Positions 1,843 to 26,003 of a stretch of 64,000 bases of DNA are shown piece by piece. The DNA lies in the NCBI GenBank assembly GCA_035305585.1, contig DATGOV010000020.1, positions 39,325-103,324 of the forward strand, written 5' to 3'. A program made the position numbers and the translations under genes. Below the pieces are notes generated by a model. That model did no database searches and was not told the DNA's origin. It saw only the letters and a program-made list of their open reading frames with translations. Numbering within the stretch: position 1 is the stretch's first letter; each line of letters begins with the position of its first letter. This stretch comes from Acidimicrobiia bacterium (GTDB lineage Bacteria > Actinomycetota > Acidimicrobiia > Spongiisociales > ZC4RG35).

Positions 1843-2511
1843 GTGGACGCAGCACAGCGGAAGGAGATCCGAGAGCGCTTCTTGGCGGTCGATGCCGCGA
1901 ACGTGGCGGACGTGCTCGACGAGCTCGGCCATGGCAACTACGGCTTGTCATCGGAGATCCAAGGCATCACCGGCGAACGGATCGCGGGCTGGGCCTACAC
2001 GATCGCCGGGCAAATGATCCCCTACGAGGGGAGCGGCGACCCGAAGAAGATGGAGGCATGCCACGGCATCGGGCCGGATGAGATCTCCGTCTGGAGCGGC
2101 GCAGGTGAGGGGGTCTGCTACTTCGGGGAGCTGATCGCGCTGGGCATGAGAGAGCGAGGTTCGGTCGGCGCGATCGTCGACGGAGGGATCAGAGACACCC
2201 GCGCTCTCCGAGAACACGGATTTCCTGTGTTCGGGGCATACCGCACAGCGGTCCAATCGATCGGTCGCTGGCGTGTCACCGACTACCAGCAACCGGTGTA
2301 CCTGCCGGGGGCGACCACGGCTCGGGTCGTAGTGCGTCCCGGCGACTTCGTTCTCGGAGACGAGGACGGAGCAATCGTCATCCCCGCCGAGCTCGTTCCT
2401 GAAGTGCTCGGCAAGGCGGAGCGAATGACGCAAACGGAGCAGGAGGTGCGAGGAGCCATCAGGGATGGGATGTCCCTCGAGGATGCCCTCGATGAGTTCG
2501 GGCACGTCTGA
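1843..2511 (+). CDS. RraA-family protein (HMG/CHA-aldolase-like)
   Basis: ANVADVLDELG and GAIVDGGIRD motifs; 222 aa. Confidence 0.7.
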   Translation: MDAAQRKEIRERFLAVDAANVADVLDELGHGNYGLSSEIQGITGERIAGWAYTIAGQMIPYEGSGDPKKMEACHGIGPDEISVWSGAGEGVCYFGELIALGMRERGSVGAIVDGGIRDTRALREHGFPVFGAYRTAVQSIGRWRVTDYQQPVYLPGATTARVVVRPGDFVLGDEDGAIVIPAELVPEVLGKAERMTQTEQEVRGAIRDGMSLEDALDEFGHV

Positions 2512-2550
2512 GAAGCAGACGCGCCAACGAAGAAGGAGGAGAGGCACAAA

Positions 2551-3585
2551 GTGAAGAAGAGCGCTCGCAGTCTGATAGTTGGGGCGACAGTCATGGCAGC
2601 CGTGGTGGCGGCCTGTGGTGGTTCGCCGGCAGGTTCCGCCACCGATGACACTCAAGCGGCCACCAGCGGCGAGTCCGTCGTCATCACCGTCGAACCTTCG
2701 GCAATTCCGGCGTTCGTGGCTGAGCGGGAGGGATTCTTCGGCGACATCGATGTCGAGGTGACCACCGTCGGGTACGAGGAAGCGGAGAGCCTCCTGCTGG
2801 CGGGCCAGACCCACATCGCGTGGATGGGTCCCCTGGATGTCGCCAAGTTCGTTTCGGAAGGCGAGGAATTCCGCTACCTCTCGACGGCCGGTGCACTCAA
2901 CATGTACAACGGGATCGTTGTCCGCGCCGAAGACGGAGACGTCTACAACGATGTGACTGATCTCGTCGGGAAGCGCCTCGGTATCCCCGGCTTCGGAACC
3001 GGCACGTGGGCGACGTTCGACGTCTTCGCTCGGAGTGTCTTCGACATCGCCTCGCCCGAAGACGACTTCGAGATCGTCACCGCCGACTCCGGCGCTTTGC
3101 TCGCCATGCTGGAACGCGGCGAGATCGATGGGGCTCTTCTGTTCGCGGCTCAGTCGGCGGCCGGCCGGTACATGGAGCAGTTCAAGACCGTCTTCAGCTT
3201 CACAGAAGCCATGCAGGAGGAGTACGGCGTGCCTCTTGTGGTCAACGGGCCTGCCGCGACTCGTGAATGGATCGAAGCCAATCCCGACACCGTCGACGCC
3301 ATCGTGAGTGGGCTGGACCAGGCGGTGGCATGGATGAAGGACAACCCGGAGGCGTTCGACGTCGACGGGAAGTACGCCGACCTCGGTGAAGGGGACGGCT
3401 GGCACAACTCCGAGGAGACGACGGCAGGAATCCTCGCGCTCGTCGGTGAGGGCGAGTGGTACCGGACCTCCAACGATTTCACGGACGAGTGGCAGTCCGC
3501 CGTCTACGAGATCATCCAGGCCGGAGAAGGCAGCCTGGTCGACAGCGTTCCGCCCATGGAGGAAATATTCGCCGATGCCGGCTGA
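2551..3585 (+). CDS. ABC transporter substrate-binding lipoprotein (NMT1/SsuA/TauA-like)
   Basis: Signal peptide with lipobox VAAC-G. Lies immediately upstream of permease, ATPase and permease genes. Confidence 0.7.
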   Translation: MKKSARSLIVGATVMAAVVAACGGSPAGSATDDTQAATSGESVVITVEPSAIPAFVAEREGFFGDIDVEVTTVGYEEAESLLLAGQTHIAWMGPLDVAKFVSEGEEFRYLSTAGALNMYNGIVVRAEDGDVYNDVTDLVGKRLGIPGFGTGTWATFDVFARSVFDIASPEDDFEIVTADSGALLAMLERGEIDGALLFAAQSAAGRYMEQFKTVFSFTEAMQEEYGVPLVVNGPAATREWIEANPDTVDAIVSGLDQAVAWMKDNPEAFDVDGKYADLGEGDGWHNSEETTAGILALVGEGEWYRTSNDFTDEWQSAVYEIIQAGEGSLVDSVPPMEEIFADAG

Positions 3586-4459
3586 CGCGCCGACGCTCGA
3601 CCAGAAGCCAAACGCCGACGGCGGCATGACGCCGGCGTCGGAAGGCTCGGGACACGGTGCTCGAGAGCACCGTGTCCCGAGGTGGCTGCGACCCTGGATT
3701 CCGATGGGCGTGCTGGTCGTCGTGTGGTGGGTCGTAACCGACTTGGTGCTCCAGAAGCCGCGTATCTACCCGACTCCGCAGTTGGTGGCAGGCGAGCTGG
3801 GTCGAATCCTCTCGGGGGAGAGCCCGCTGGGGTCTACCTACGCCCACGCCGGCGCCACCCTCGCCAGGCTCCTGGTGGCATTCCTGGCCGCCTTCGTCAT
3901 CGGCACGGTGCTCGGGATCGTCGCGGGACGAGTGAAGTCTCTCTTCGACTTCTCCAACAGCCTCGTTTGGATCGGCTTGGCGGTGCCGTCGGTCGTCTGG
4001 GTGTTCGTCTTCCTGGTCGTCTTTGGAATCGGCGATGTGGTCCCAGTGGTCGCATTGGTCGTGATGCTCACGACGCCTGTCTTCCTGGGGTCGGCCGAGG
4101 GCGCCAAGGCCATCGACAGAGAACTACTCGAAATGGCGGCGTCCTATCGAGCCGATTGGAGGTCACGGCTGAGAGATCTCTATCTGCCAGCGATCCTGCC
4201 GTTCATGCTCGCCAACGGTCGCGTCGCGTTCGCCCTCGGGATCAAGGTCGTGATCATCGCCGAGGTCGTCGGCCTTCCGAACGGCATCGGTCTTCTCGTG
4301 AAGTACTGGAAGGACCAGCTCTACATGGCCCCAGTCGTCGCCTGGGGCGTGTTGCTCATCGTGATGGGCTTCGTCGTGGATAGGTGGCTGTTCGGGTACT
4401 TCGAGAAGCGCAGTCTCCGCCGTACGGGAGCCCGCGTGTCTGTCGTGTCCGCCGAGTGA
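3575..4459 (+). CDS. ABC transporter permease (NitT/TauT family)
   Basis: Multi-TM protein. ATG 3575 overlaps the SBP stop. The longer ORF-track start at 3386 lies inside the SBP gene and is rejected. Confidence 0.75.
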   Translation: MPADAPTLDQKPNADGGMTPASEGSGHGAREHRVPRWLRPWIPMGVLVVVWWVVTDLVLQKPRIYPTPQLVAGELGRILSGESPLGSTYAHAGATLARLLVAFLAAFVIGTVLGIVAGRVKSLFDFSNSLVWIGLAVPSVVWVFVFLVVFGIGDVVPVVALVVMLTTPVFLGSAEGAKAIDRELLEMAASYRADWRSRLRDLYLPAILPFMLANGRVAFALGIKVVIIAEVVGLPNGIGLLVKYWKDQLYMAPVVAWGVLLIVMGFVVDRWLFGYFEKRSLRRTGARVSVVSAE

Positions 4460-16488: not shown

Positions 16489-16561
16489 TCCGGGGTAGCT
16501 CAATCGGCAGAGCAGCGGGCTGTTAACCCGTTGGTTGTGAGTTCGAGTCTCACCCCCGGAG
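16489..16561 (+). tRNA. tRNA-Asn (anticodon GTT)
   Basis: Hand-folded cloverleaf: acceptor TCCGGGG/CCCCGGA, D arm GCTC-AATCGGCA-GAGC, anticodon arm GCGGG-CTGTTAA-CCCGT, T arm GTGAG-TTCGAGT-CTCAC, discriminator G. CCA is not encoded. Confidence 0.93.
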
Positions 16562-16655
16562 CTTTCTTCGGAACAGAACTCGGGATCCGTCGCGATGTCC
16601 GCGGCGGATCTCTTCGTATCCAGGGGTGTTCCTGTCGTCGACCGGATAAAACCCG

Positions 16656-17510: not shown

Positions 17511-17998
17511 ACCAGGAGGAAGTCCTCGAACTGCTCAACGAGGACCCGTACGCCCAGAGATTGCTGACCTCGTCGATCCCTGCTCGACTCGCATATGTGG
17601 CGCTCGACGGCACTCCGCGAGTCATCCCGATCGCTTTCCACTTCGACGGTTCCCGGTTCGTGCTCGGCACCATCGACTTCTCCGCCAAGGTACGGGCGAT
17701 CCAGGCCAATCCGGCGGTTGCCCTGACCGTCGACACCTCCGACCAGCCGCCACTCGTGCTCATGGTTCGCGGTGTCGCCGAGGTGTCCTTCGTCGACGGT
17801 GTGCTTCCGGAGTACCTCGAGGCGAACCGCAAGATGTTCAGCGCGGCAGCCTTTCCCGCATTCGAAGCCGAGGTAACCCAGTTGTACGACCGGATGGCGA
17901 GGATCGACATCACACCGACATGGGCGAAGGTCCTCGATTTCGAGACCCGGGCTCCCGAAGCGGTGATGGAGCTCGCCGCGGCCAGGGCCGTGGCCTGA
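17507..17998 (+). CDS. Pyridoxamine 5'-phosphate oxidase (PPOX)-family protein
   Basis: ARLAYVALDGTPRVIPIAFHFDGSRFVL split-barrel N-terminus. ATGA overlap with the preceding gene. Confidence 0.65.
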   Translation: MNQEEVLELLNEDPYAQRLLTSSIPARLAYVALDGTPRVIPIAFHFDGSRFVLGTIDFSAKVRAIQANPAVALTVDTSDQPPLVLMVRGVAEVSFVDGVLPEYLEANRKMFSAAAFPAFEAEVTQLYDRMARIDITPTWAKVLDFETRAPEAVMELAAARAVA

Positions 17999-18020
17999 GG
18001 CGGCGACGCTTCGAGAGCCG

Positions 18021-18815
18021 TTGGTGAGGGATCTGTCCGTGCTCATCGATGCTCACGTCCACCTGGACGGCTACGGCGACCGACTCCCCGCGGCTCTCGG
18101 GGACATCGAGAGGCGACCGATCCTCACTTTCGCCGTCTCGATGGATCCCGGATCGTACGAGGTGGCGGAGCGCGTCTCGGTCGAGTCTCCACATGTGATC
18201 CCTGCGTTCGGCATCCATCCCTGGGAGGCGCATCGTTGGGCTGAGCGGCTGGAGGATGTCGACGCTCTGATCGAAGAGGCGCCGATGATCGGCGAGATCG
18301 GACTCGACCGTCGCTGGGTGGAGGAGCCGGAGAAATACGAGCCCCAGCGGCTGGTCTTCCGCCATTTTCTGCGGAGGGCGGCCGCATGCGACCGGATCAT
18401 CAACGTCCACACCTCCGGAGCCGAGACGGAATGCCTGGAAGAGATCGTCGACCACGGATGCCGCCGGGTGATCGTCCATTGGTACTCCGGACCGCTCGAC
18501 GTCCTCAGGGACATGATCGATGCCGGCTTCTACTTCACGGTCGGAGTCGAGCTTCGGTACTCCGAGTGGATCCGCCAGGTGGCGCTCGCCATACCGGACG
18601 ACCGGTTGCTCACGGAGACCGACAATCCCGGTGGGTTGGAGTGGCTGACGGGAGAAGCCGGGATGCCCGAGAAGATCGCCGACGTGGTGGCCGACCTGGC
18701 CGAGCTGCGCGACACGGCACCGGAAACGGTCGAGGCCCTCGTCGCCGAGAACGTGCGCCGTCTGATGGACGGTGATCCAGCTCTCGACGCCTGGGTCGAC
18801 TGCCTCGCCAGTTGA
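18021..18815 (+). CDS. TatD-family metal-dependent hydrolase
   Basis: IDAHVHLD metal motif, GEIGLD, ETDNP. Confidence 0.8.
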   Translation: MVRDLSVLIDAHVHLDGYGDRLPAALGDIERRPILTFAVSMDPGSYEVAERVSVESPHVIPAFGIHPWEAHRWAERLEDVDALIEEAPMIGEIGLDRRWVEEPEKYEPQRLVFRHFLRRAAACDRIINVHTSGAETECLEEIVDHGCRRVIVHWYSGPLDVLRDMIDAGFYFTVGVELRYSEWIRQVALAIPDDRLLTETDNPGGLEWLTGEAGMPEKIADVVADLAELRDTAPETVEALVAENVRRLMDGDPALDAWVDCLAS

Positions 18816-18899
18816 TCCCACAGGCGCCGAGAGGCGCAGAGGCCCGTTCGCCTCGGTGGTGGGGCAAGGTAGAGACCAGAGCGATATGCGAGGTGAGAG

Positions 18900-19853
18900 A
18901 TGAAGGTCGCGCTGGCAGGGGACACGATGCTCGGCCGGGCTGTCGGCACGGCGATCGAGCGCCGCTCCGCCGCTGCCATCGTCCATCCTGACGTCATCGA
19001 GGCCGTGAGCGACAACGACCTCTTCGTCCTCAATCTCGAATGCTGCATCTCGACCAGAGGAGTGCGTTGGCCGGATCCCCGCAAGCCCTTCTTCTTCCGC
19101 GCTCCACCCGAGGCGGTGGAAGTCCTGACCATTCTGGGCGTGGACTGTGTGACGCTCGCCAACAACCACGCCCTCGACTACGGCTACCAGGCGCTGGCCG
19201 ACACGCTCCACTACCTGGAAGAAGCCGGCATCGCGGTCGTGGGAGCAGGCGAGGACCAGGCGGCCGCCCGTCGACACCTGACGTTGGAAGCCGCCGGATC
19301 CCGACTGAGAGTCGTCGCATTCGCCGACCACCCAGCCGATTTCGCAGCCGGGCACGACACCCCAGGGATCGCCTACGTCGACCTCCTCCGCGGCGTGGGG
19401 GACTGGATTCGCGGAGCCGTCTCCGAGTCGCCCGACCCGGTGCTCGTCACTCCGCATTGGGGCCCCAACATGACGGAGTCCCCCGTTCCATCGGTCCGTC
19501 GGGCTGCCCGAGACCTGCGGGACGCCGGGGCGACCCTCGTCGCGGGCCACTCCGCCCACGTGTTCCACGGGGTCGCCGAGAGGATCATCTACGACATGGG
19601 TGACTTCGTCGACGACTACGCCGTCGACCCGATCCTCCGCAACGACTTGGGGCTGGTGTTCCTCGTCGATCTCACGCCGAGCGGGCCAGAGCGGATCGAA
19701 GCCATCCCGATCACTCTCGACTTCTGCCACACCCGTTTGGCGAGAGACGACGAGTTCGACTGGATCGAGTCGCGACTGCGTCGGGTCTGTGCAGCGATGG
19801 GGTCGACGGTGACCCGGGTCGGGAGCCGCCTCCTCGTCGAAACGGGTGGGTGA
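18900..19853 (+). CDS. CapA-family (PGA_cap metallophosphatase-like) protein
   Basis: LAGDTMLGR, NLECCIS, LANNHALDYG, HWGPN, GHSAHV. Confidence 0.8.
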   Translation: MKVALAGDTMLGRAVGTAIERRSAAAIVHPDVIEAVSDNDLFVLNLECCISTRGVRWPDPRKPFFFRAPPEAVEVLTILGVDCVTLANNHALDYGYQALADTLHYLEEAGIAVVGAGEDQAAARRHLTLEAAGSRLRVVAFADHPADFAAGHDTPGIAYVDLLRGVGDWIRGAVSESPDPVLVTPHWGPNMTESPVPSVRRAARDLRDAGATLVAGHSAHVFHGVAERIIYDMGDFVDDYAVDPILRNDLGLVFLVDLTPSGPERIEAIPITLDFCHTRLARDDEFDWIESRLRRVCAAMGSTVTRVGSRLLVETGG

Positions 19854-19855
19854 GC

Positions 19856-20980
19856 TCAGCTCTGGAAGGGATACCGCAGGATCGCCGCCAGGTCGCCACC
19901 ACCCGGGATGTCGTCTCGTCGGACAGCGAGGACGCGGCCATTGGCGTTCCAGACCCGACGGGCGACCTCGTCGATCACCGAGTACGCCTCGGCGTCGTCG
20001 GTTTCGGCGAACTCGACGGCGCCTCGCTCGTCGACGAAACCGGGTACGACCGCATCGATGTCGACGAACAGGGTGTCGACCATCCCGAACGTCGCCGCCC
20101 GGGCGACGTTGGCCACGTCGGTGCCCGCCCGGCCCTCCGTCATGCGCCTCTCGAACAGGTCGTGGAGGGCGGCGAGCTGGATGGCGTACAGCTCGTCGAG
20201 GATCGTCCGGGCGCGAGCGGCCAGCTCGGCGTCCGAGGTGTTCTCGGGATTGCCGTCGATGCCCTCGTCGACGAGATGGGGATAGGTGTTCACGGAGCGG
20301 TAGATGGACTGCAGAGGCTCCGCCGCGGCGAGGATCAAGGGCACGTTCTGGTCGGCCATGCCCGAGCGGACCGCGTCGGCGACGCTCCTGCAATAGATGC
20401 GAAGGTGGCTCCGCTCGGCCATCGAGCTCTGGGTCTTTCCCCGAGGCGCCCGGTCGTCGACGTGGACGATCCGGACCGCGTCGACCACCCCCTCCGGCAG
20501 CTCCGGTATGTCGACCTCGGTGGGCCCGCCCTCGGGCAGCACCTCGAGCAATCTCACCGAGTTCTGCGACAGGGCGAGGACGAACGCCACCTGCGGGAAC
20601 GTGATCGACCGCAACAGGGGCTTCATGTGGAACCGGTCGGAGACGTCGACGATCTCGGTGAGCCGGTTCGGAAGCCGGTATGTGACCAACCACTCGGGGG
20701 TGGCGAACACCGCCAGGCTCCGAGCCAGATAGCGCCAGAAGTACTCGTCGGCTAGGAGGTCGGAGAACTGCTCTTCCAGGGCAGTGATCTCGCGCTTGTC
20801 GGCGCCCGCTTCGGTGAGCTGGTCCACCGCCTCGGCAACGAGGTTCTTCAGTGCGATGCGTTCCGCCTGTCCGGGGCTCGTCGGCTCGGTGGGGAGGTAG
20901 ATCGACACGCACCTGGGCCCGATGGTCTCGAAGAGTCGGCTGACTTGCTCGTGGGTGGGTATGTCGATGTGGAGTGGCAT
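19856..20980 (-). CDS. eRF1/Vms1-like (baeRF-type) release-factor-fold protein
   Basis: N-terminal CVSIYLPT and RFHMKPLL. RGKTQSSMAERSHLRIYCRSVADAV aligns by eye with eRF1 RGGQSALRFARLR..HNYVRKVAE. C-terminal ...AAILRYPF. ATG 20980 is preceded by GAAGGAG. Confidence 0.55.
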   Translation of the reverse strand: MPLHIDIPTHEQVSRLFETIGPRCVSIYLPTEPTSPGQAERIALKNLVAEAVDQLTEAGADKREITALEEQFSDLLADEYFWRYLARSLAVFATPEWLVTYRLPNRLTEIVDVSDRFHMKPLLRSITFPQVAFVLALSQNSVRLLEVLPEGGPTEVDIPELPEGVVDAVRIVHVDDRAPRGKTQSSMAERSHLRIYCRSVADAVRSGMADQNVPLILAAAEPLQSIYRSVNTYPHLVDEGIDGNPENTSDAELAARARTILDELYAIQLAALHDLFERRMTEGRAGTDVANVARAATFGMVDTLFVDIDAVVPGFVDERGAVEFAETDDAEAYSVIDEVARRVWNANGRVLAVRRDDIPGGGDLAAILRYPFQS

Positions 20981-21041
20981 CACGGCTCCTTCGTGGTGGA
21001 TGGCCGGGGGTTCCGATTCGTACATGAGCTACCGCAGATAG

Positions 21042-22097
21042 TCACGATCGAACCAGGATCCCGGCCTCGGACTCTTCTGTGGCCAGGTTCGTGCGGAAGA
21101 ACGCTCGCAGAACGGCCGAATTCGTTTCGAAATGGCGGCTGGGGGAGTGGGTGAGGAAGCGGCTTCCTGATGCCCGGACGAGGGGAAGCTGGAGTTGGTC
21201 CGCCAGGTGTATCCCGACGGGAACCCCTGCCCGCAGGTAGGTCTCGACCTCGGCGGCCACCGACCCGGCCACCTGCTCGGCGGGGACGCCCCGCCGCCCG
21301 AACCCGGTGAACACCTCTGTGACGTGTTCACTTTCGACGACCGCCATCACGGCGTTCCCCGGACCGTCGGCTTCCACTTCTTCTGCCACCAGCGCGCTCC
21401 CCGGCCAGCCCAGGCGGTTCTCCAACACCGCCAGCTCGCGATGGGCGATCGAGATGGGAAGTCGCGAGACGATCGCCCGCGCTTCGACAGTGCGAATCTC
21501 TCCCCGATCGGTCAACTCGAGAGGTCGCCACCGCGTTCCCCGGATGGTGGCGACGATCCGCCCGCCGCCAGCAGGATGGAACCCGGGGCGCTCCAGATCC
21601 AAGTCCGCTTCGAGTCCCATCCTCCGGAGAACGGGAAGGAAGGCCAGATCGAGGAATTCGTATGACGGGGCGCCGGGGTTGTGGGTCCCGCCGACGATCG
21701 TCACCTCCGATTCCTGTCCGCTTTCGGCGAGAGGCACGAGCAGGGTCTGCAGCACCAAGGTGGCACTCCCCGCCGTGCCCACATCGAACCGATAGCGCCC
21801 TGGCCGTACGGGGCCTGGTCGGAAGACGAGGCGATCCGATCCGAGGCGAGCTCCCTCCACGGCGGCGTCCCCGATCCGGGCGGCGGCCCGGACGGCCGTG
21901 AGGTGTTGGGCCAGCAGGCCGGGCCGGCGCCGCCTCGCCCGGATGCGTCTCATCTCGAAAGCGATACCGGTGAGCAGCGACGCCGACAGCGACGTGCGCA
22001 GGATCTGGCCACCGCCCTCGCCCATCGAACCGTCGATGACGACCGGGGCAGCGGCGGGGCTCTCGTCGTTCGGTTTGGCCATAGACCTCGTCATCAT
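21042..22097 (-). CDS. rtcA: RNA 3'-terminal phosphate cyclase
   Basis: DGSMGEGGGQILRTSLSASLLTG..F....IRARRRRPGLLAQHLTAV and IVGGTHNPGAPSYEFL. The start is uncertain (22082, 22094, 22097 or 22121). Confidence 0.88.
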   Translation of the reverse strand: MMTRSMAKPNDESPAAAPVVIDGSMGEGGGQILRTSLSASLLTGIAFEMRRIRARRRRPGLLAQHLTAVRAAARIGDAAVEGARLGSDRLVFRPGPVRPGRYRFDVGTAGSATLVLQTLLVPLAESGQESEVTIVGGTHNPGAPSYEFLDLAFLPVLRRMGLEADLDLERPGFHPAGGGRIVATIRGTRWRPLELTDRGEIRTVEARAIVSRLPISIAHRELAVLENRLGWPGSALVAEEVEADGPGNAVMAVVESEHVTEVFTGFGRRGVPAEQVAGSVAAEVETYLRAGVPVGIHLADQLQLPLVRASGSRFLTHSPSRHFETNSAVLRAFFRTNLATEESEAGILVRS

Positions 22098-22133
22098 CTG
22101 GTCCCCCTGGAAGCAACGCATACCCGATGTGGC

Positions 22134-23753
22134 TCAGTCGAGCATCGCGATTCGTGTCGCTTCGTCGATCTTCTCCCCGGTTTCGGGATGGACGGCATCA
22201 CAGCCGCCGTCCACCACGGTGACGGCTTCCCCGCGGGCGACGGGATTGCCGACCAGGTAGGGGGCGTCGAGCAGGCCCGATCGGACCACTGCGCCTAGTT
22301 CCTTGGAGTCGCCTTCCATCGCGCCGGGGTAGCGGTCGGCGATGGTGTCGAGCAAGTACTCCGCCTCTTCGACCAGCCAGTCCCTCCTCGCCACGACCTC
22401 GGGGTCGGCGAGCGGGTCGGGGAGGCCCAGCAGTGCATCGTCGACGACTTGTCGCACCAGCGTGCACGAAGTGATCAGCTCGTCGGGCTCGATGGCATGG
22501 TCCGCCTCCGTGTGGCCGACGACGTGGAGGATGTCGGGCGACAGTGCCATGGCCGTGCGGGTCGCCGAGCCCAGTTGGCCGAGGGCTCGAACCGGGTCGG
22601 CCGGCAGCGAGAACAGGCCCGCTCGTAGCTCACGCAGGATCGTCAACCCGGAGCCGGCGCGCCGCTCCACGACGGCATGCATGGCTTCCATCTTGGCGAT
22701 GTCCATCGCCGGCGAGATCCCCGCCGGGTTGTTCAGCATCATCTGGATCACGTACGTGTCGACTCCAACGGAGGCGGACAGGCGCGCCGCCAACCCGGCC
22801 GCGGCCACCTGGACCGTGTCTGAGGCGGCGCGGAGCCCCCATTGGTTCTGATCGTTGCGTTCGACCGGGATGCCGTTGGCCGCACTCCAAGCCACCAACT
22901 CCTGGTTCTCGGCGATGGCGTCCTCCAGCGGGCGCTTCGAGCGTCCGTCCAGCTCCGAGTACCAGAACACCGGGATCGCGCACCAGGCGTTCTCGATGGT
23001 CTCGTGCAGCATCCGGCCGAACTCCACCAGGTCGTTGGTGCCGGCGTAGCACCGCAGAAGGGGGCGGTTCCCTCGCTGGGCAGCTTCGTACAGGCGTCGG
23101 AAGTCGTCGGGCGTGCGGACGGGCACGCCGCCGGCGCCGTCTTGGGACGGGTCCATGCGTTCCGGATGGAAGAAGTGCTCCTGGGCGTTCTGATCCGGGG
23201 CCAGCGAGATCACATCGACGACACCGGCTTCGGCGATCTCCTGGATGCCGCGGATCGTCCTCTCCAGCGAGGGGAGGCCGAAGTGATGCCTGATCAGAGG
23301 CCGCCGGCCGCTCAGCCGGCGGCGGGTCAACAGGTCCTGAGGACCGGAAAGGACTTCGAGCGACGCTGTCTCCTCCCCGGAGAGCCACTCGTCGATGTCC
23401 TCGTCGGGGCGATCGCCGAACACCCGGTCGAAGACTCCCGACCGGCGGGCCACTTCGGCTACCGGCGGCGGGCCACCGAACCAGGTCCTGGTCCCGGCGA
23501 GGCCAGCCCTCTCCAAGGCAGAGCCCAGCTCCGAGAACAGCCGCTCGGCCGCCTCGGGCGTGAGTCGGTAGGAGAGAGCCAGCACGTCCGGCTCCAGTCG
23601 CTTGGCCTCTTCGATCACCCGCTCGATGGGGGTCGCAGGGCCCAAGAACACAGTGCGGAATCCGTGGCGGCGGGTGGCGGCGAGGAAGTTGAGGATCCCG
23701 GCGACGTGGACGCAGTCGCCGATCGCCGCACCCAGTACGAGCTTCTCAGTCAT
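22134..23753 (-). CDS. Fused B12-binding-like domain / TIM-barrel mutase-like protein (function unknown)
   Basis: N-terminal flavodoxin-like B12-domain pattern LVLGAAIGDCVHVAGI...PDVLALSY. The C-terminal ~400 aa resemble the glutamate-mutase E chain by eye (IRHHFG...; VIQMMLNN..GISPAMDIAKMEA; GLLDAPYL). ATGA overlap with the upstream gene. Confidence 0.5.
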   Translation of the reverse strand: MTEKLVLGAAIGDCVHVAGILNFLAATRRHGFRTVFLGPATPIERVIEEAKRLEPDVLALSYRLTPEAAERLFSELGSALERAGLAGTRTWFGGPPPVAEVARRSGVFDRVFGDRPDEDIDEWLSGEETASLEVLSGPQDLLTRRRLSGRRPLIRHHFGLPSLERTIRGIQEIAEAGVVDVISLAPDQNAQEHFFHPERMDPSQDGAGGVPVRTPDDFRRLYEAAQRGNRPLLRCYAGTNDLVEFGRMLHETIENAWCAIPVFWYSELDGRSKRPLEDAIAENQELVAWSAANGIPVERNDQNQWGLRAASDTVQVAAAGLAARLSASVGVDTYVIQMMLNNPAGISPAMDIAKMEAMHAVVERRAGSGLTILRELRAGLFSLPADPVRALGQLGSATRTAMALSPDILHVVGHTEADHAIEPDELITSCTLVRQVVDDALLGLPDPLADPEVVARRDWLVEEAEYLLDTIADRYPGAMEGDSKELGAVVRSGLLDAPYLVGNPVARGEAVTVVDGGCDAVHPETGEKIDEATRIAMLD

Positions 23754-24844
23754 GAGCTGTACCCATAGCTAGCCACCCGCCGGATCTCGGCCGGGCTCAA
23801 ACCCGCCAAGCCGAGGCTCTCGAGCGTCCGCCCTCTGCTCCAGTAGTTCGTCTGGTGCACGATCCCGGCGAGCGTGATCACAGACTCGATCGCTCGGGGG
23901 TTCAGGCCGAAATGGCGTCCCGCCGATGCCATCGGAACCATGCTCATCGGCACGTCCTCGAGCATGTAGCGGTTCTCCATCGTCGGCGGCGCGGAGATCC
24001 CCCGGTAGCCTTCGTTCGCTTGGATCGCCTCGTAGAGATCCTTCCCTTGGGCACGATAGGCGATCATCAGCCAGTCACGCATGGAGCGTGTCGGCACACC
24101 GAGCAGGCTGGACACCGCCAGCCGTTCCCTGTCGACCGCCTCGAGGACGTTGGCGACGCCGGGGCTGACACCATCGAGGTAGAACTCGAACCGACCCTGC
24201 GTGTTCTCGATCCGAGCGGTGTTGAACAACGTGATCGCCGGATGGACCACGGCGCCGACGTTGGCGAAGCTCGTCTCGAGGGTGCACTCCGCAGGGTGGA
24301 ACTGGGGATACCAGGGCGCGAGCTGGGCGACCACGTCCGCGGTCCGAGTGCACGGGATCGCCGCGAGATTGACCGAACGCTTCACCCGGTTGATTCGGGA
24401 CTGCGCCGGGCCAGTGCTGCGGGATGCGAAGATGAAGGTGCCCGCCTCGGCCACCACCACGCCCTCGGAAGCCTCCTGGGCCCTCAGTTCGTGGAGGAAC
24501 TCGATGGCGCCGAAGGTGCGTCCCGGGTTGAGAACGACCGTCTGGCCGCTTCGGAGATACGGGGCCGCCTTCCGGGCGACTTCCCGGTGCCCGAAAGCCG
24601 GCACACAGACCATGACCAGGTTGGCATCGGCCAACGCCTCGCCGATGTCGGAAGTGACCAGGCGGATCTTCCCGAAACCTTCGATCTCGCCTTCCAGATC
24701 GACTCCGCCGTGCTCCGCGACCTCGGCTACGTGCTCGGGGGTCCGGTTCCACAGGACCACGTCGGCTCCCATGCGACCCAGATCTCCCGCGAGAGCCCGG
24801 CCCGCATGGCCTGCGCCTAGAACTGCAATCGATCCGTTGCTCAT
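23750..24844 (-). CDS. Opine (octopine/nopaline) dehydrogenase-family NAD(P) oxidoreductase
   Basis: IAVLGAGHAGRALAGDL Rossmann motif; C-terminal YMLEDVPMSMVPMAS...GL..P.IESVITLA. ATG 24844 is preceded by AAGGA. Confidence 0.8.
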   Translation of the reverse strand: MSNGSIAVLGAGHAGRALAGDLGRMGADVVLWNRTPEHVAEVAEHGGVDLEGEIEGFGKIRLVTSDIGEALADANLVMVCVPAFGHREVARKAAPYLRSGQTVVLNPGRTFGAIEFLHELRAQEASEGVVVAEAGTFIFASRSTGPAQSRINRVKRSVNLAAIPCTRTADVVAQLAPWYPQFHPAECTLETSFANVGAVVHPAITLFNTARIENTQGRFEFYLDGVSPGVANVLEAVDRERLAVSSLLGVPTRSMRDWLMIAYRAQGKDLYEAIQANEGYRGISAPPTMENRYMLEDVPMSMVPMASAGRHFGLNPRAIESVITLAGIVHQTNYWSRGRTLESLGLAGLSPAEIRRVASYGYSS

Positions 24845-25122
24845 CTCGATCCTTTCACTGCGCCGGGGCCCGGTCGTGACCATCGGATGCGGTCAACCGA
24901 ACCCCGAGACTGGGCTGTCCATACGGACGTCTCCTCTTCCGATTCCAAGCCGTGAACGGATCGGATGGCTGGTTCCGAGATGTCTTTCGGCGGTTCCTAG
25001 CCTTTCTCTTCTCCGTCTCGCCGCTCACAGCCCCTGTGTTTTCGACTCTGCCGTATCCAGGGGCCGCTGTTGAGGGCCTAAGGTCCCGCCGGGCTAGGGG
25101 CCTTCGTGAGAAATTCCGCCCG

Positions 25123-25167
25123 TCTGTGAAGATTTCTGCGGCGCTCAGCCGCAGAAATCTTCACAGA
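25123..25167 (-). terminator. Perfect AT-rich hairpin 15 nt downstream of the trmB-like stop
   Basis: ctgtgaagatttctgcggc (25124-25142), loop gctca, gccgcagaaatcttcacag (25148-25166), plus a flanking T:A pair. No U-tract follows. Confidence 0.5.
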
Positions 25168-25181
25168 GTGGGGGTCGGCGA

Positions 25182-26003
25182 TCAGCGGGCGATGTCGAGC
25201 GCCTGAAGGGCTTTTTCGAAGGTGATCGCCTGCTCCCACATCGCTTCGAAGGTGACGCGGAGGGCGGCAGCGAGGGCCGGGTGCTCGACCACCATCATCG
25301 TCGCCTCGGCGCCGGAGGCGACCGGGTCGTCGAGGGCGAACATCACCAACGAGCGGTCGACGATCCCCATCTTCAATGGCAGCTCTTCGACGAACCTCGC
25401 CTCCTCGCCGGCCTCGATGAATCGGCGGATGCCTTCGACCGTGGCGGGATCCGAGAGGAGCCCGATCTCGTAGATGGAACGGGCCCGGTAACGCTTCAAA
25501 CCGGCGATTCCCGTGACGTTCTCCTGGACCGGCAGGGCGATGGGGGGCTTCGTGAACACGAGGATCTCTTCGCGCACCTTCTCGGAGATCTCGGCGGTGT
25601 ACTGGGAGATCGTGGCGTTGCCCCGCAGGACCTGGATGAAGTCGAGAGGCTCGGTGTGGTCTCGCCCGGAGTCGAACTCCGGCTCCAGACGGTCGATGAG
25701 ATCGGAGCCGGTGCTCTCGATGTCTTTCATACGGCTGCGGTGCTCGTCGAGCAGTCGTCCCACGGCCGCGGCGGGCGGCATCGCCGAATAGCGGATCACG
25801 GCGCCGGGCCAACTCGAGGCGAACCCTCGGTCGATCAGGCTCCGCAGCACGTCGTAGATCCGAGCTCGCGGAATCGCCGCACGGCGGGCGATCTCTGCCG
25901 CGGTGAAGGAATCCCTGCCCAGCAAGGCGACATACGCCTTCGCCTCGTATGTCGTCAGGCCCAGGCTGGTGAGTTCGGCGATGCTCTGCGTGTAAGCCTC
26001 CAC
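25182..26003 (-). CDS. TrmB-family transcriptional regulator
   Basis: N-terminal LGLTTYEAKAYVALLGRDSFTAAEIARRAAIPRARIYDVLRSLIDRGF winged HTH, followed by a TrmB-type C-terminal domain. Confidence 0.8.
   Translation of the reverse strand: MEAYTQSIAELTSLGLTTYEAKAYVALLGRDSFTAAEIARRAAIPRARIYDVLRSLIDRGFASSWPGAVIRYSAMPPAAAVGRLLDEHRSRMKDIESTGSDLIDRLEPEFDSGRDHTEPLDFIQVLRGNATISQYTAEISEKVREEILVFTKPPIALPVQENVTGIAGLKRYRARSIYEIGLLSDPATVEGIRRFIEAGEEARFVEELPLKMGIVDRSLVMFALDDPVASGAEATMMVVEHPALAAALRVTFEAMWEQAITFEKALQALDIAR

Follow-up and report, generated by a model that had tools for sequence, protein, structure and literature searches.

The stretch of DNA analysed here (the window: 64 kb, ~67% G+C, from contig DATGOV010000020.1 of an Acidimicrobiia bacterium) carries rtcA, the gene for an RNA 3'-terminal phosphate cyclase, followed on the same minus strand by a gene for a 374-amino-acid protein. 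Our analysis makes it probable that this protein is a Balon-type ribosome hibernation factor, loosely coupled with RtcA as a stress or dormancy pairing. Balon, reported in 2024, occupies the ribosomal A site, binds EF-Tu and leaves the nascent chain intact (PMC10901736); the baeRF families, bacterial relatives of the archaeo-eukaryotic release factor aeRF1, had been described in 2019 (PMC6514570). Profile searches, a sequence match in the PDB and a structural model place the three-domain protein (19856..20980, minus strand; Pfam families 11 and 8) in the bacterial aeRF1 (baeRF-1) clade, where it is a new member, as yet uncharacterised, of a kind already known from Balon and the baeRF proteins. 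The link to RtcA draws on gene neighbourhoods in Acidimicrobiia.

Family and fold of the 374-amino-acid protein

Profile searches assigned the protein to the baeRF families, with Balon as its closest characterised relative. Pfam baeRF_family11 (PF18855) matched the middle domain at 155 bits (E = 1.8e-45; cutoff 27.2), and the protein also scored above the Pfam cutoffs for family 8 (146 bits) and family 3 (94 bits). Its best NCBIfam match was full length and fell on NF052287, the AOC03_06830 family ribosome hibernation factor, which is Balon (E = 9e-40). When the single sequence was searched against all PDB sequences, the sole solid match was Balon of Psychrobacter urativorans (8RD8 chain B, E = 7.6e-14). 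A profile of the family aligned with the same chain end to end (E = 2.5e-18) and reached Msmeg1130 only marginally (E = 0.11), so that the protein lies closer in sequence to Psychrobacter Balon than to the experimentally validated Msmeg1130. Neither aeRF1 nor Pelota came up when PDB sequences were searched with a hidden Markov model profile; both were recovered by the fold search alone.

For that search we used an AlphaFold2 (AF2) model built on an alignment of 146 sequences, comprising added family members and 28 Psychrobacter Balon orthologues. The model had a predicted local distance difference test score (pLDDT) of 90.2 and a predicted template modelling score of 0.85; an earlier model from 30 close homologues was poor (pLDDT 55.7). 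Foldseek against the PDB placed Balon first (three entries, E ~1e-24, template modelling (TM) score ~0.6), followed by Msmeg1130 (7e-20), Rv2629 (3e-14), aRF1/eRF1 (1e-13 to 1e-10) and Pelota/Dom34. The six best matches were all ribosome-bound hibernation factors, namely Balon, Msmeg1130 and Rv2629 (E = 1e-24 to 3e-14), and no Vms1 chain appeared in the top 50. A preliminary description, made from the DNA letters, had read the protein as an eRF1- and Vms1-like baeRF protein. The family 11 profile and the Foldseek match to Balon bear out the baeRF identity, and the aRF1/eRF1 and Pelota fold was found as expected, but the hibernation factors rank above it and the likeness to Vms1 did not emerge. 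The short motifs on which that description had relied (CVSIYLPT, RFHMKPLL and the C-terminal ILRYPF) are all present in the protein.

Comparison with Balon (AOC03_06830 of P. urativorans; PDB 8RD8, 8RDV, 8RDW; PMC10901736) revealed a common three-domain aeRF1-like fold and several shared particulars: both proteins lack NIKS and GGQ, carry a beta-hairpin at the zinc-ribbon site of the C-terminal domain, and have a basic helix after the loop on the side of the peptidyl-transferase centre (PTC). A linker motif is likewise common to both (DRFHLKPLLR in the window family, NRFATRDLVR in Balon). The two differ in that they are only 21-23% identical, that Balon belongs to Pfam family 3 whereas the window protein matches families 11 and 8 best, that the PTC-side loop is shorter in the window family (DRxPxGxxQ(G/S)S against GDGGSDRS), and that the window gene adjoins rtcA whereas the Balon gene adjoins RaiA.

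Each of the three domains contributes a recognisable element. In place of the NIKS and GGQ motifs, neither of which was found in the protein, the N-domain loop reads PTEPTSPG and the middle-domain loop reads DDRAPRGKTQ. The N-domain tip loop (residues 30-37; 20870..20893, minus strand), in which T31 and P33 are conserved, aligns with THREHPAN of Balon, presumably the HP loop at the decoding centre; we located the HP motif within the Balon loop by alignment, as the paper gives no residue numbers. The middle-domain loop (residues 172-184, VHVDDRAPRGKTQ; 20429..20467, minus strand) is the only low-confidence, disordered segment of the AF2 model and lies between the third strand of that domain and the helix spanning residues 184-207. 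This order of strands, loop and long helix is the catalytic-loop topology described for the superfamily (PMC6514570), and it is also that of the 'lasso' loop of Balon, so the window loop is positionally equivalent to the GGQ loop of eRF1. The earlier placement of GKTQ (codons 20429-20440, verified) in a loop corresponding to GGQ is thus upheld by the model.

The third element, which belongs to the C-terminal domain, is an inserted beta-hairpin (residues 313-325, PGFVDERGAVEFA; 20006..20044, minus strand), with predicted strands at residues 314-316 and 322-324 and with P313, G314 and G320 invariant. The segment aligns with the corresponding segment of Balon and occupies the site of the zinc ribbon of aeRF1 and of baeRF family 10, where a family 10 relative has CxxC...CxxC. 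It corresponds to the EF-Tu-contacting hairpin of Balon and fits the insertion described for many baeRF families (PMC6514570, PMC10901736).

The mycobacterial homologues Msmeg1130 and Rv2629 (PDB 8V9J, 8V9K, 8V9L) are strong structural matches (E = 7e-20 to 3e-14, TM 0.58-0.65), and as actinobacterial baeRF proteins they have been shown to occupy the A site and to inhibit translation; their genes lie in hypoxia (DosR) operons (PMC10901736). They differ from the window protein in being barely detected by its sequence profile, and they stand nearer to the family 10 protein of the second RtcA cluster described below. With aeRF1/eRF1 and Pelota/Dom34 the protein shares ancestry and fold (Foldseek E = 1e-13 to 1e-7) and the position of GKTQ in the GGQ-homologous loop, but a hairpin replaces the zinc ribbon, the two signature motifs are missing and these matches rank below the hibernation factors. 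Unlike Pelota, the window protein keeps an eRF1-type N domain.

rtcA and its gene neighbourhoods

The rtcA gene (21042..22097, minus strand) encodes 351 amino acids; its reading frame is open to 22121, and the start at 22097 is the likely one, matching independent gene callers. The product matches Pfam RTC (2e-66) and RTC_insert and exceeds two NCBIfam equivalog cutoffs (NF003246, 397 against 352 bits; TIGR03399, 335 against 250 bits). In an alignment of 23 homologues, no variation occurs at E27, R34, R53, R56, Q64, H65 or H322, which align with the catalytic residues of E. coli RtcA, H322 being the adenylylated histidine (codon 21132-21134). By these residues, the window rtcA encodes a fully equipped, functional-looking RNA 3'-phosphate cyclase.

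No RtcB or RtcR accompanies it: when the 64 kb were searched by tblastn with RtcB and RtcR of E. coli and with an RtcB from Acidimicrobiia, the best E value was 0.14, in agreement with the preliminary description. That description had added that rtcA usually sits with both. We examined 20 RtcA loci, drawn from a broad sample and flanked by 2.5 kb or more on either side, and found RtcB in 14 and RtcR in 13; six had neither, so the usual company is real, and a lone rtcA is a common minority arrangement rather than an exception. RtcR depends on sigma-54, which to our knowledge is not expected in actinobacteria. The E. coli rtcBA-rtcR operon (PMC7790460, PMC3854526) resembles the window in its RtcA orthologue, which is 43% identical with all catalytic residues kept, and differs from it in carrying RtcB and RtcR. 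The chemistry of RtcA is the conversion of RNA 3'-phosphate ends to 2',3'-cyclic ends (PMC3854526, PMC7790460).

The spacer between rtcA and the Balon-type gene is 61 nucleotides long (20981..21041), exactly as first described, and holds the Shine-Dalgarno sequence AAGGAG (20986-20991), 5 nucleotides upstream of the ATG at 20980; both are kept in three related loci. In other assemblies, independent gene callers give products of 351 and 374 amino acids in identical order. Scans of 19500-25500 for sigma-70 promoters and terminators returned nothing informative, and no terminator was predicted between the two genes. The short intergenic gaps, the conserved Shine-Dalgarno sequence and the absence of a predicted terminator support co-transcription: rtcA and the Balon-type gene, the last two members of a same-strand cluster of four closely spaced genes, probably share one transcript.

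Outside the window, we found that rtcA recurs beside ribosome hibernation genes in a second Acidimicrobiia lineage. The next-closest RtcA proteins (~60% identity) are encoded in a same-strand cluster of YbaK-like tRNA_edit, RtcA, baeRF_family10 and long HPF genes. This cluster (L174:4516-8294; also L173, L175, L176 and L177, with variants in L082-L085) occurs in four RtcA clusters defined at 90% identity, one of them carried by at least 59 contig blocks, and no description of it was found in the literature searched. Its family 10 protein has a zinc ribbon and resembles Rv2629 and MSMEG_1130. In one variant a PrimPol gene (Prim-Pol/DnaG-zinc-ribbon) stands between rtcA and the family 10 gene (L082:4574-5851, L083:1234-2337), with weak PADLOC matches to DRT-associated models (RTasDnaG-like, 8.7e-10); another variant retains only a baeRF remnant beside HPF. 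The YbaK-like gene links the two settings: in L001, a locus related to the window, it directly follows the family 11 gene (L001:6640-7101) and shares 56-60% identity with its counterpart in the family 10 cluster. Neither the window nor a second related locus, L002, has it.

A third Acidimicrobiia arrangement, unlike that of the window, joins RtcA to an archaeal-type RtcB near HSP20 (L170:170-3606, L178:2909-7774); there, HSP20 and an opposite-strand phosphoribosyltransferase-hydrolase gene precede the RtcA-RtcB pair. The E. coli RtcB query missed archaeal-type RtcB on short Acidimicrobiia contigs.

By a rough estimate rather than a formal test, and given that a genome of a few thousand genes holds only a few for baeRF proteins, any one immediate rtcA-baeRF adjacency has a ~0.2% chance of arising at random. 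Two such adjacencies, involving two baeRF families in two settings within one class, are therefore unlikely to be coincidental. Together with the published neighbours of Balon, this suggests a loose functional theme linking rtcA to ribosome hibernation genes. Those published neighbours include RaiA and RtcB, not RtcA (PMC10901736); neither RtcA nor 'cyclase' occurs in the main text of PMC6514570 or PMC10901736, or in the supplement text of the latter that was searched, and the literature search on RtcA or RtcB with hibernation or Balon returned nothing beyond the Balon paper. The association with RtcA and the YbaK-like gene is thus apparently unreported and a modest extension of known stress-operon contexts, in which the published link is RtcB. 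The novelty that had been claimed for the pairing is reduced to this extent: the baeRF and Balon families were already described and RtcB was already listed beside Balon, and what remains apparently new is RtcA. A parallel exists in the prfH/RFH-RtcB pair (PMC6514570), in which a release-factor-related A-site protein is likewise paired genetically with an RNA-end repair enzyme, but RFH has the unrelated bacterial release factor fold and a catalytic GGQ, and its partner is the ligase RtcB rather than a cyclase.

The cluster is headed by a gene for an octopine/opine-dehydrogenase-like NAD(P) oxidoreductase (23750..24883, minus strand; Pfam Octopine_DH, 3.6e-41), followed by a gene for a 539-amino-acid protein with an N-terminal B12-binding domain (22134..23753, minus strand; Pfam B12-binding, 1.6e-12); rtcA and the Balon-type gene come next. 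The B12-binding match is confined to residues 6-114, and the remaining ~420 residues had no Pfam or NCBIfam match. The dehydrogenase-like stop codon and the start of the B12-binding gene overlap by 4 nucleotides, forming a translationally coupled pair (22134-24883). Both genes look metabolic. The pair is kept at 86-90% identity in the related loci L001-L003, where it keeps its synteny with the Balon-type gene with or without rtcA.

Elsewhere in the window, a tRNA-Asn gene (GTT; 16489-16562, plus strand) was the sole Rfam or ARAGORN match, and the idea that a regulatory RNA such as a riboswitch precedes the cluster was dropped accordingly. A defence-system reading was likewise set aside, as PADLOC matched none of the window genes. 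A 1000-amino-acid open frame (17910-20912, minus strand) that runs in another frame over the TatD, PGA_cap and Balon-type genes is a spurious open reading frame (ORF) of high-G+C DNA and not a gene.

Weighing the pairing and its alternatives

Several findings weigh against a Balon-type factor coupled with RtcA. The NF052287 score of the protein is 137 bits against an equivalog cutoff of 330; judged by sequence, the protein is a homologue of Balon and not an orthologue-level member. Ribosome binding is deduced from homology at the low identity to Balon given above. The HP motif of Balon appears not to be reproduced: where the alignment places it, EHP faces T-S-P, and the decoding loop of the window family has the consensus PTxPxS. 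Position 184, the last of the middle-domain loop, is Gln in 190 of 199 non-redundant relatives at 52% identity or more (95%), making a subfamily-specific role possible. On the side of the pairing, the promoter scan detected no promoter at the cluster, and tblastn and profile searches around 80 RtcA genes from a broad sample (44-56% identity) recovered no baeRF gene.

The remaining findings of this kind concern the adjacency itself, and they equally favour an account in which the protein is a Balon-type factor and its proximity to rtcA has no functional meaning, a labile gene having landed between the B12-binding and Balon-type genes in one lineage. We regard this account as possible, though doubtful. 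In a scan of family 11 relatives at 52-81% identity (one genome per species, 80 loci), rtcA stood beside the family 11 gene in only two loci, L001 and L002. These are Acidimicrobiia metagenome-assembled genomes (MAGs) with the gene order of the window and with Balon-type proteins 80% identical to its own; rtcA also lies directly upstream of the family 11 gene in no fewer than 61 contig blocks that carry the identical protein. The Balon-type protein of L003 is 81% identical, yet there the dehydrogenase-like and B12-binding genes are followed directly by the Balon-type gene after a 111-nucleotide spacer, with no rtcA. In L185 (~80% identical), the rtcA upstream of an intact family 11 gene is a pseudogene. 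In a neighbour-joining tree of RtcA, the clade of the window includes copies followed by an IS30-like transposase or by an unrelated convergent gene. The other 78 of the 80 loci lack rtcA, and no neighbour was common to more than 10 of the 80; the neighbour clustering used a crude ORF caller filtered on G+C at third codon positions, which admitted some spurious ORFs, and we relied on it only for this lack of a conserved partner. The metabolic look of the upstream genes points the same way.

The decayed copy in L185 (1651-2259) lacks the N-terminal 160 amino acids of RtcA and contains at least two frameshifts and an in-frame stop, although an assembly error in this MAG is possible. The annotated product of the locus at NCBI, a protein of 460 amino acids (VF183_03995), carries an N-terminal extension that is the RtcA C-terminus. 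We considered an RtcA-Balon fusion protein (P0004) and rejected it, since the decayed rtcA and a miscalled start explain the apparent fusion. The flanks of L185 also differ from those of the window, consisting of isochorismatase and HSP70 genes. In L168, the IS30-like transposase gene (2474-3760; HTH_38 and rve) begins at the stop codon of an rtcA 74% identical to that of the window.

The absence of rtcA from L003, its decay in L185 and the variable neighbours in the RtcA clade make rtcA a labile partner, in whose absence the Balon-type gene is still retained; the transposase gene of L168 suggests that rtcA has been mobile within this clade. Because rtcA is lost or decayed in sister lineages, the hibernation factor does not need RtcA, and any coupling between the two is loose. 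Other observations nonetheless speak against chance proximity: rtcA lies beside family 10 and HPF genes in another Acidimicrobiia lineage, an arrangement kept in dozens of contigs and across several 90% clusters; a YbaK-like gene is found again in each of the two settings; the rtcA remnant and the family 11 gene of L185 stand together between different flanking genes; two independent adjacencies are improbable by the rough estimate above; and a Balon-RtcB neighbourhood is published (PMC10901736). The adjacency that the preliminary description had expected to be conserved thus holds in the window clade, including L001 and L002, and fails in nearly all other loci. The RNA-damage or ribosome-rescue module it proposed survives as a weak, lineage-restricted association, in which the family 11 adjacency is confined to the window clade and rtcA recurs beside family 10 and HPF in a second lineage.

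The GKTQ string had also prompted a catalytic reading, in which the family 11 protein would be an active rescue factor whose GxxQ loop hydrolyses peptidyl-tRNA as eRF1 does or cuts the tRNA CCA end as Vms1 does, with RtcA, and in relatives the YbaK-like deacylase, processing the tRNA 3' end. We find this improbable. It would account for the prevalence of Gln184 among close relatives, for the fixation of RGKTQSS in the window's clade and for the loop standing at the GGQ position in the AF2 model. The recurring neighbours RtcA and YbaK-like tRNA_edit both act on RNA or tRNA 3' ends, and activity in a few baeRF-1 families with a conserved Gln has been allowed for (PMC6514570). The alignments nevertheless speak against it. 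Nine of the 199 close relatives have R, K, H or E at position 184. When the family is clustered at 50% identity and sampled by 97 full-length representatives, which share 32-64% identity with the window protein, only 33 keep the Gln. Loop length varies among these 97, with deletions and with insertions of up to ~20 residues, and some of the Gln-bearing representatives carry such insertions too. At position 181, Gly (145/199, 73%) is replaced by Arg in 53 of the close relatives (27%), and the residue preceding Gln184 is L, I, T or V, so that no tiny residue stands there. In Balon, which spares the nascent peptide, the residue facing the Gln is Arg when GDGGSDRS is set against the window loop.

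The likeness to Vms1/ANKZF1 (the VLRF-1 clade) is therefore one of pattern, a G-x-x-Q string in an aeRF1-type middle-domain loop seen in the window clade only; the VLRF-1 pattern demands that the Gly never varies and that a tiny residue precedes the Gln (PMC6514570). None of the GGQ, GxuQ or GGxSQ patterns of active families (PMC6514570) was matched in the family alignments, and the protein lacks all three hallmarks of active aeRF1-superfamily hydrolases, namely an invariant catalytic Gln, Gly or tiny neighbours and a narrow loop length. The structural ranking, led by hibernation factors and then aRF1/eRF1 with no Vms1 among the 50 best, the lack of NIKS or any other codon-reading motif, and the dispensability of RtcA in sister lineages tell against an active factor as well. 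Inactive baeRF-1 families, as defined by Burroughs and Aravind, have a variable loop of unconstrained length and conserved basic residues in the next helix (PMC6514570). The window family fits this signature, and in the 97 representatives G185, E187, G188, K/R190, Y/F196 and R198 are still conserved. The interchange of Q, R and K at position 184, the variable loop length and the conserved Y/F196 and R198 point to RNA contact rather than catalysis. On this pattern of conservation a catalytic, Vms1-like reading is unlikely, and the protein is most likely not a peptide-releasing enzyme; the earlier interpretation of GKTQ as a catalytic motif is not supported. We caution that a GxxQ string in a baeRF protein is not evidence for release-factor chemistry.

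Proposed role of the pairing

We therefore return to a Balon-type hibernation factor loosely coupled with RtcA. By homology, the protein would enter the A site of idle or stalled ribosomes independently of mRNA. There, the tip loop of the N domain would occupy the decoding centre but would not read the message, the middle-domain loop and arginine-rich helix would lie beside the PTC and the 3' end of the P-site tRNA, and the C-domain hairpin would contact EF-Tu. Held in this way, the protein would block translation and protect the ribosome, with no release of the peptide. Gene context suggests that rtcA and the Balon-type gene may be expressed together under stress, in which case ribosomes would be parked while RtcA turns the 3'-phosphate ends of broken rRNA or tRNA into 2',3'-cyclic ends. 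If the genome has an RtcB gene at another site, its product might then ligate these ends; they might also serve for protection or signalling. We give little credence to a bolder proposal, that RtcA, a free-standing YbaK-like aminoacyl-tRNA deacylase, a Balon-type protein of family 10 or 11 and HPF form one tRNA 3'-end service system of Acidimicrobiia on parked or stalled ribosomes. In its strongest form, the family 11 protein would act like Vms1, its Gln loop releasing the P-site tRNA or clipping it, and the end so made would be cyclised by RtcA for repair or signalling.

Balon-type factors were recognised in 2024 as the third family of bacterial hibernation factors, of which only family 3 and the mycobacterial type were tested (PMC10901736). 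The family branch to which the window protein belongs comprises 6903 clusters (50% identity) at E <= 1e-3, a very large branch that shares the Balon fold but has different ribosome-contact loops. The locus adds RtcA and a YbaK-like deacylase to the neighbourhood published for Balon and RtcB, through two gene arrangements that are independent of each other. Should the link not be functional, the window would add one more Balon paralogue in a variable neighbourhood; should it be functional, it would tie the parking of ribosomes to the healing of damaged RNA ends in dormant actinobacteria.

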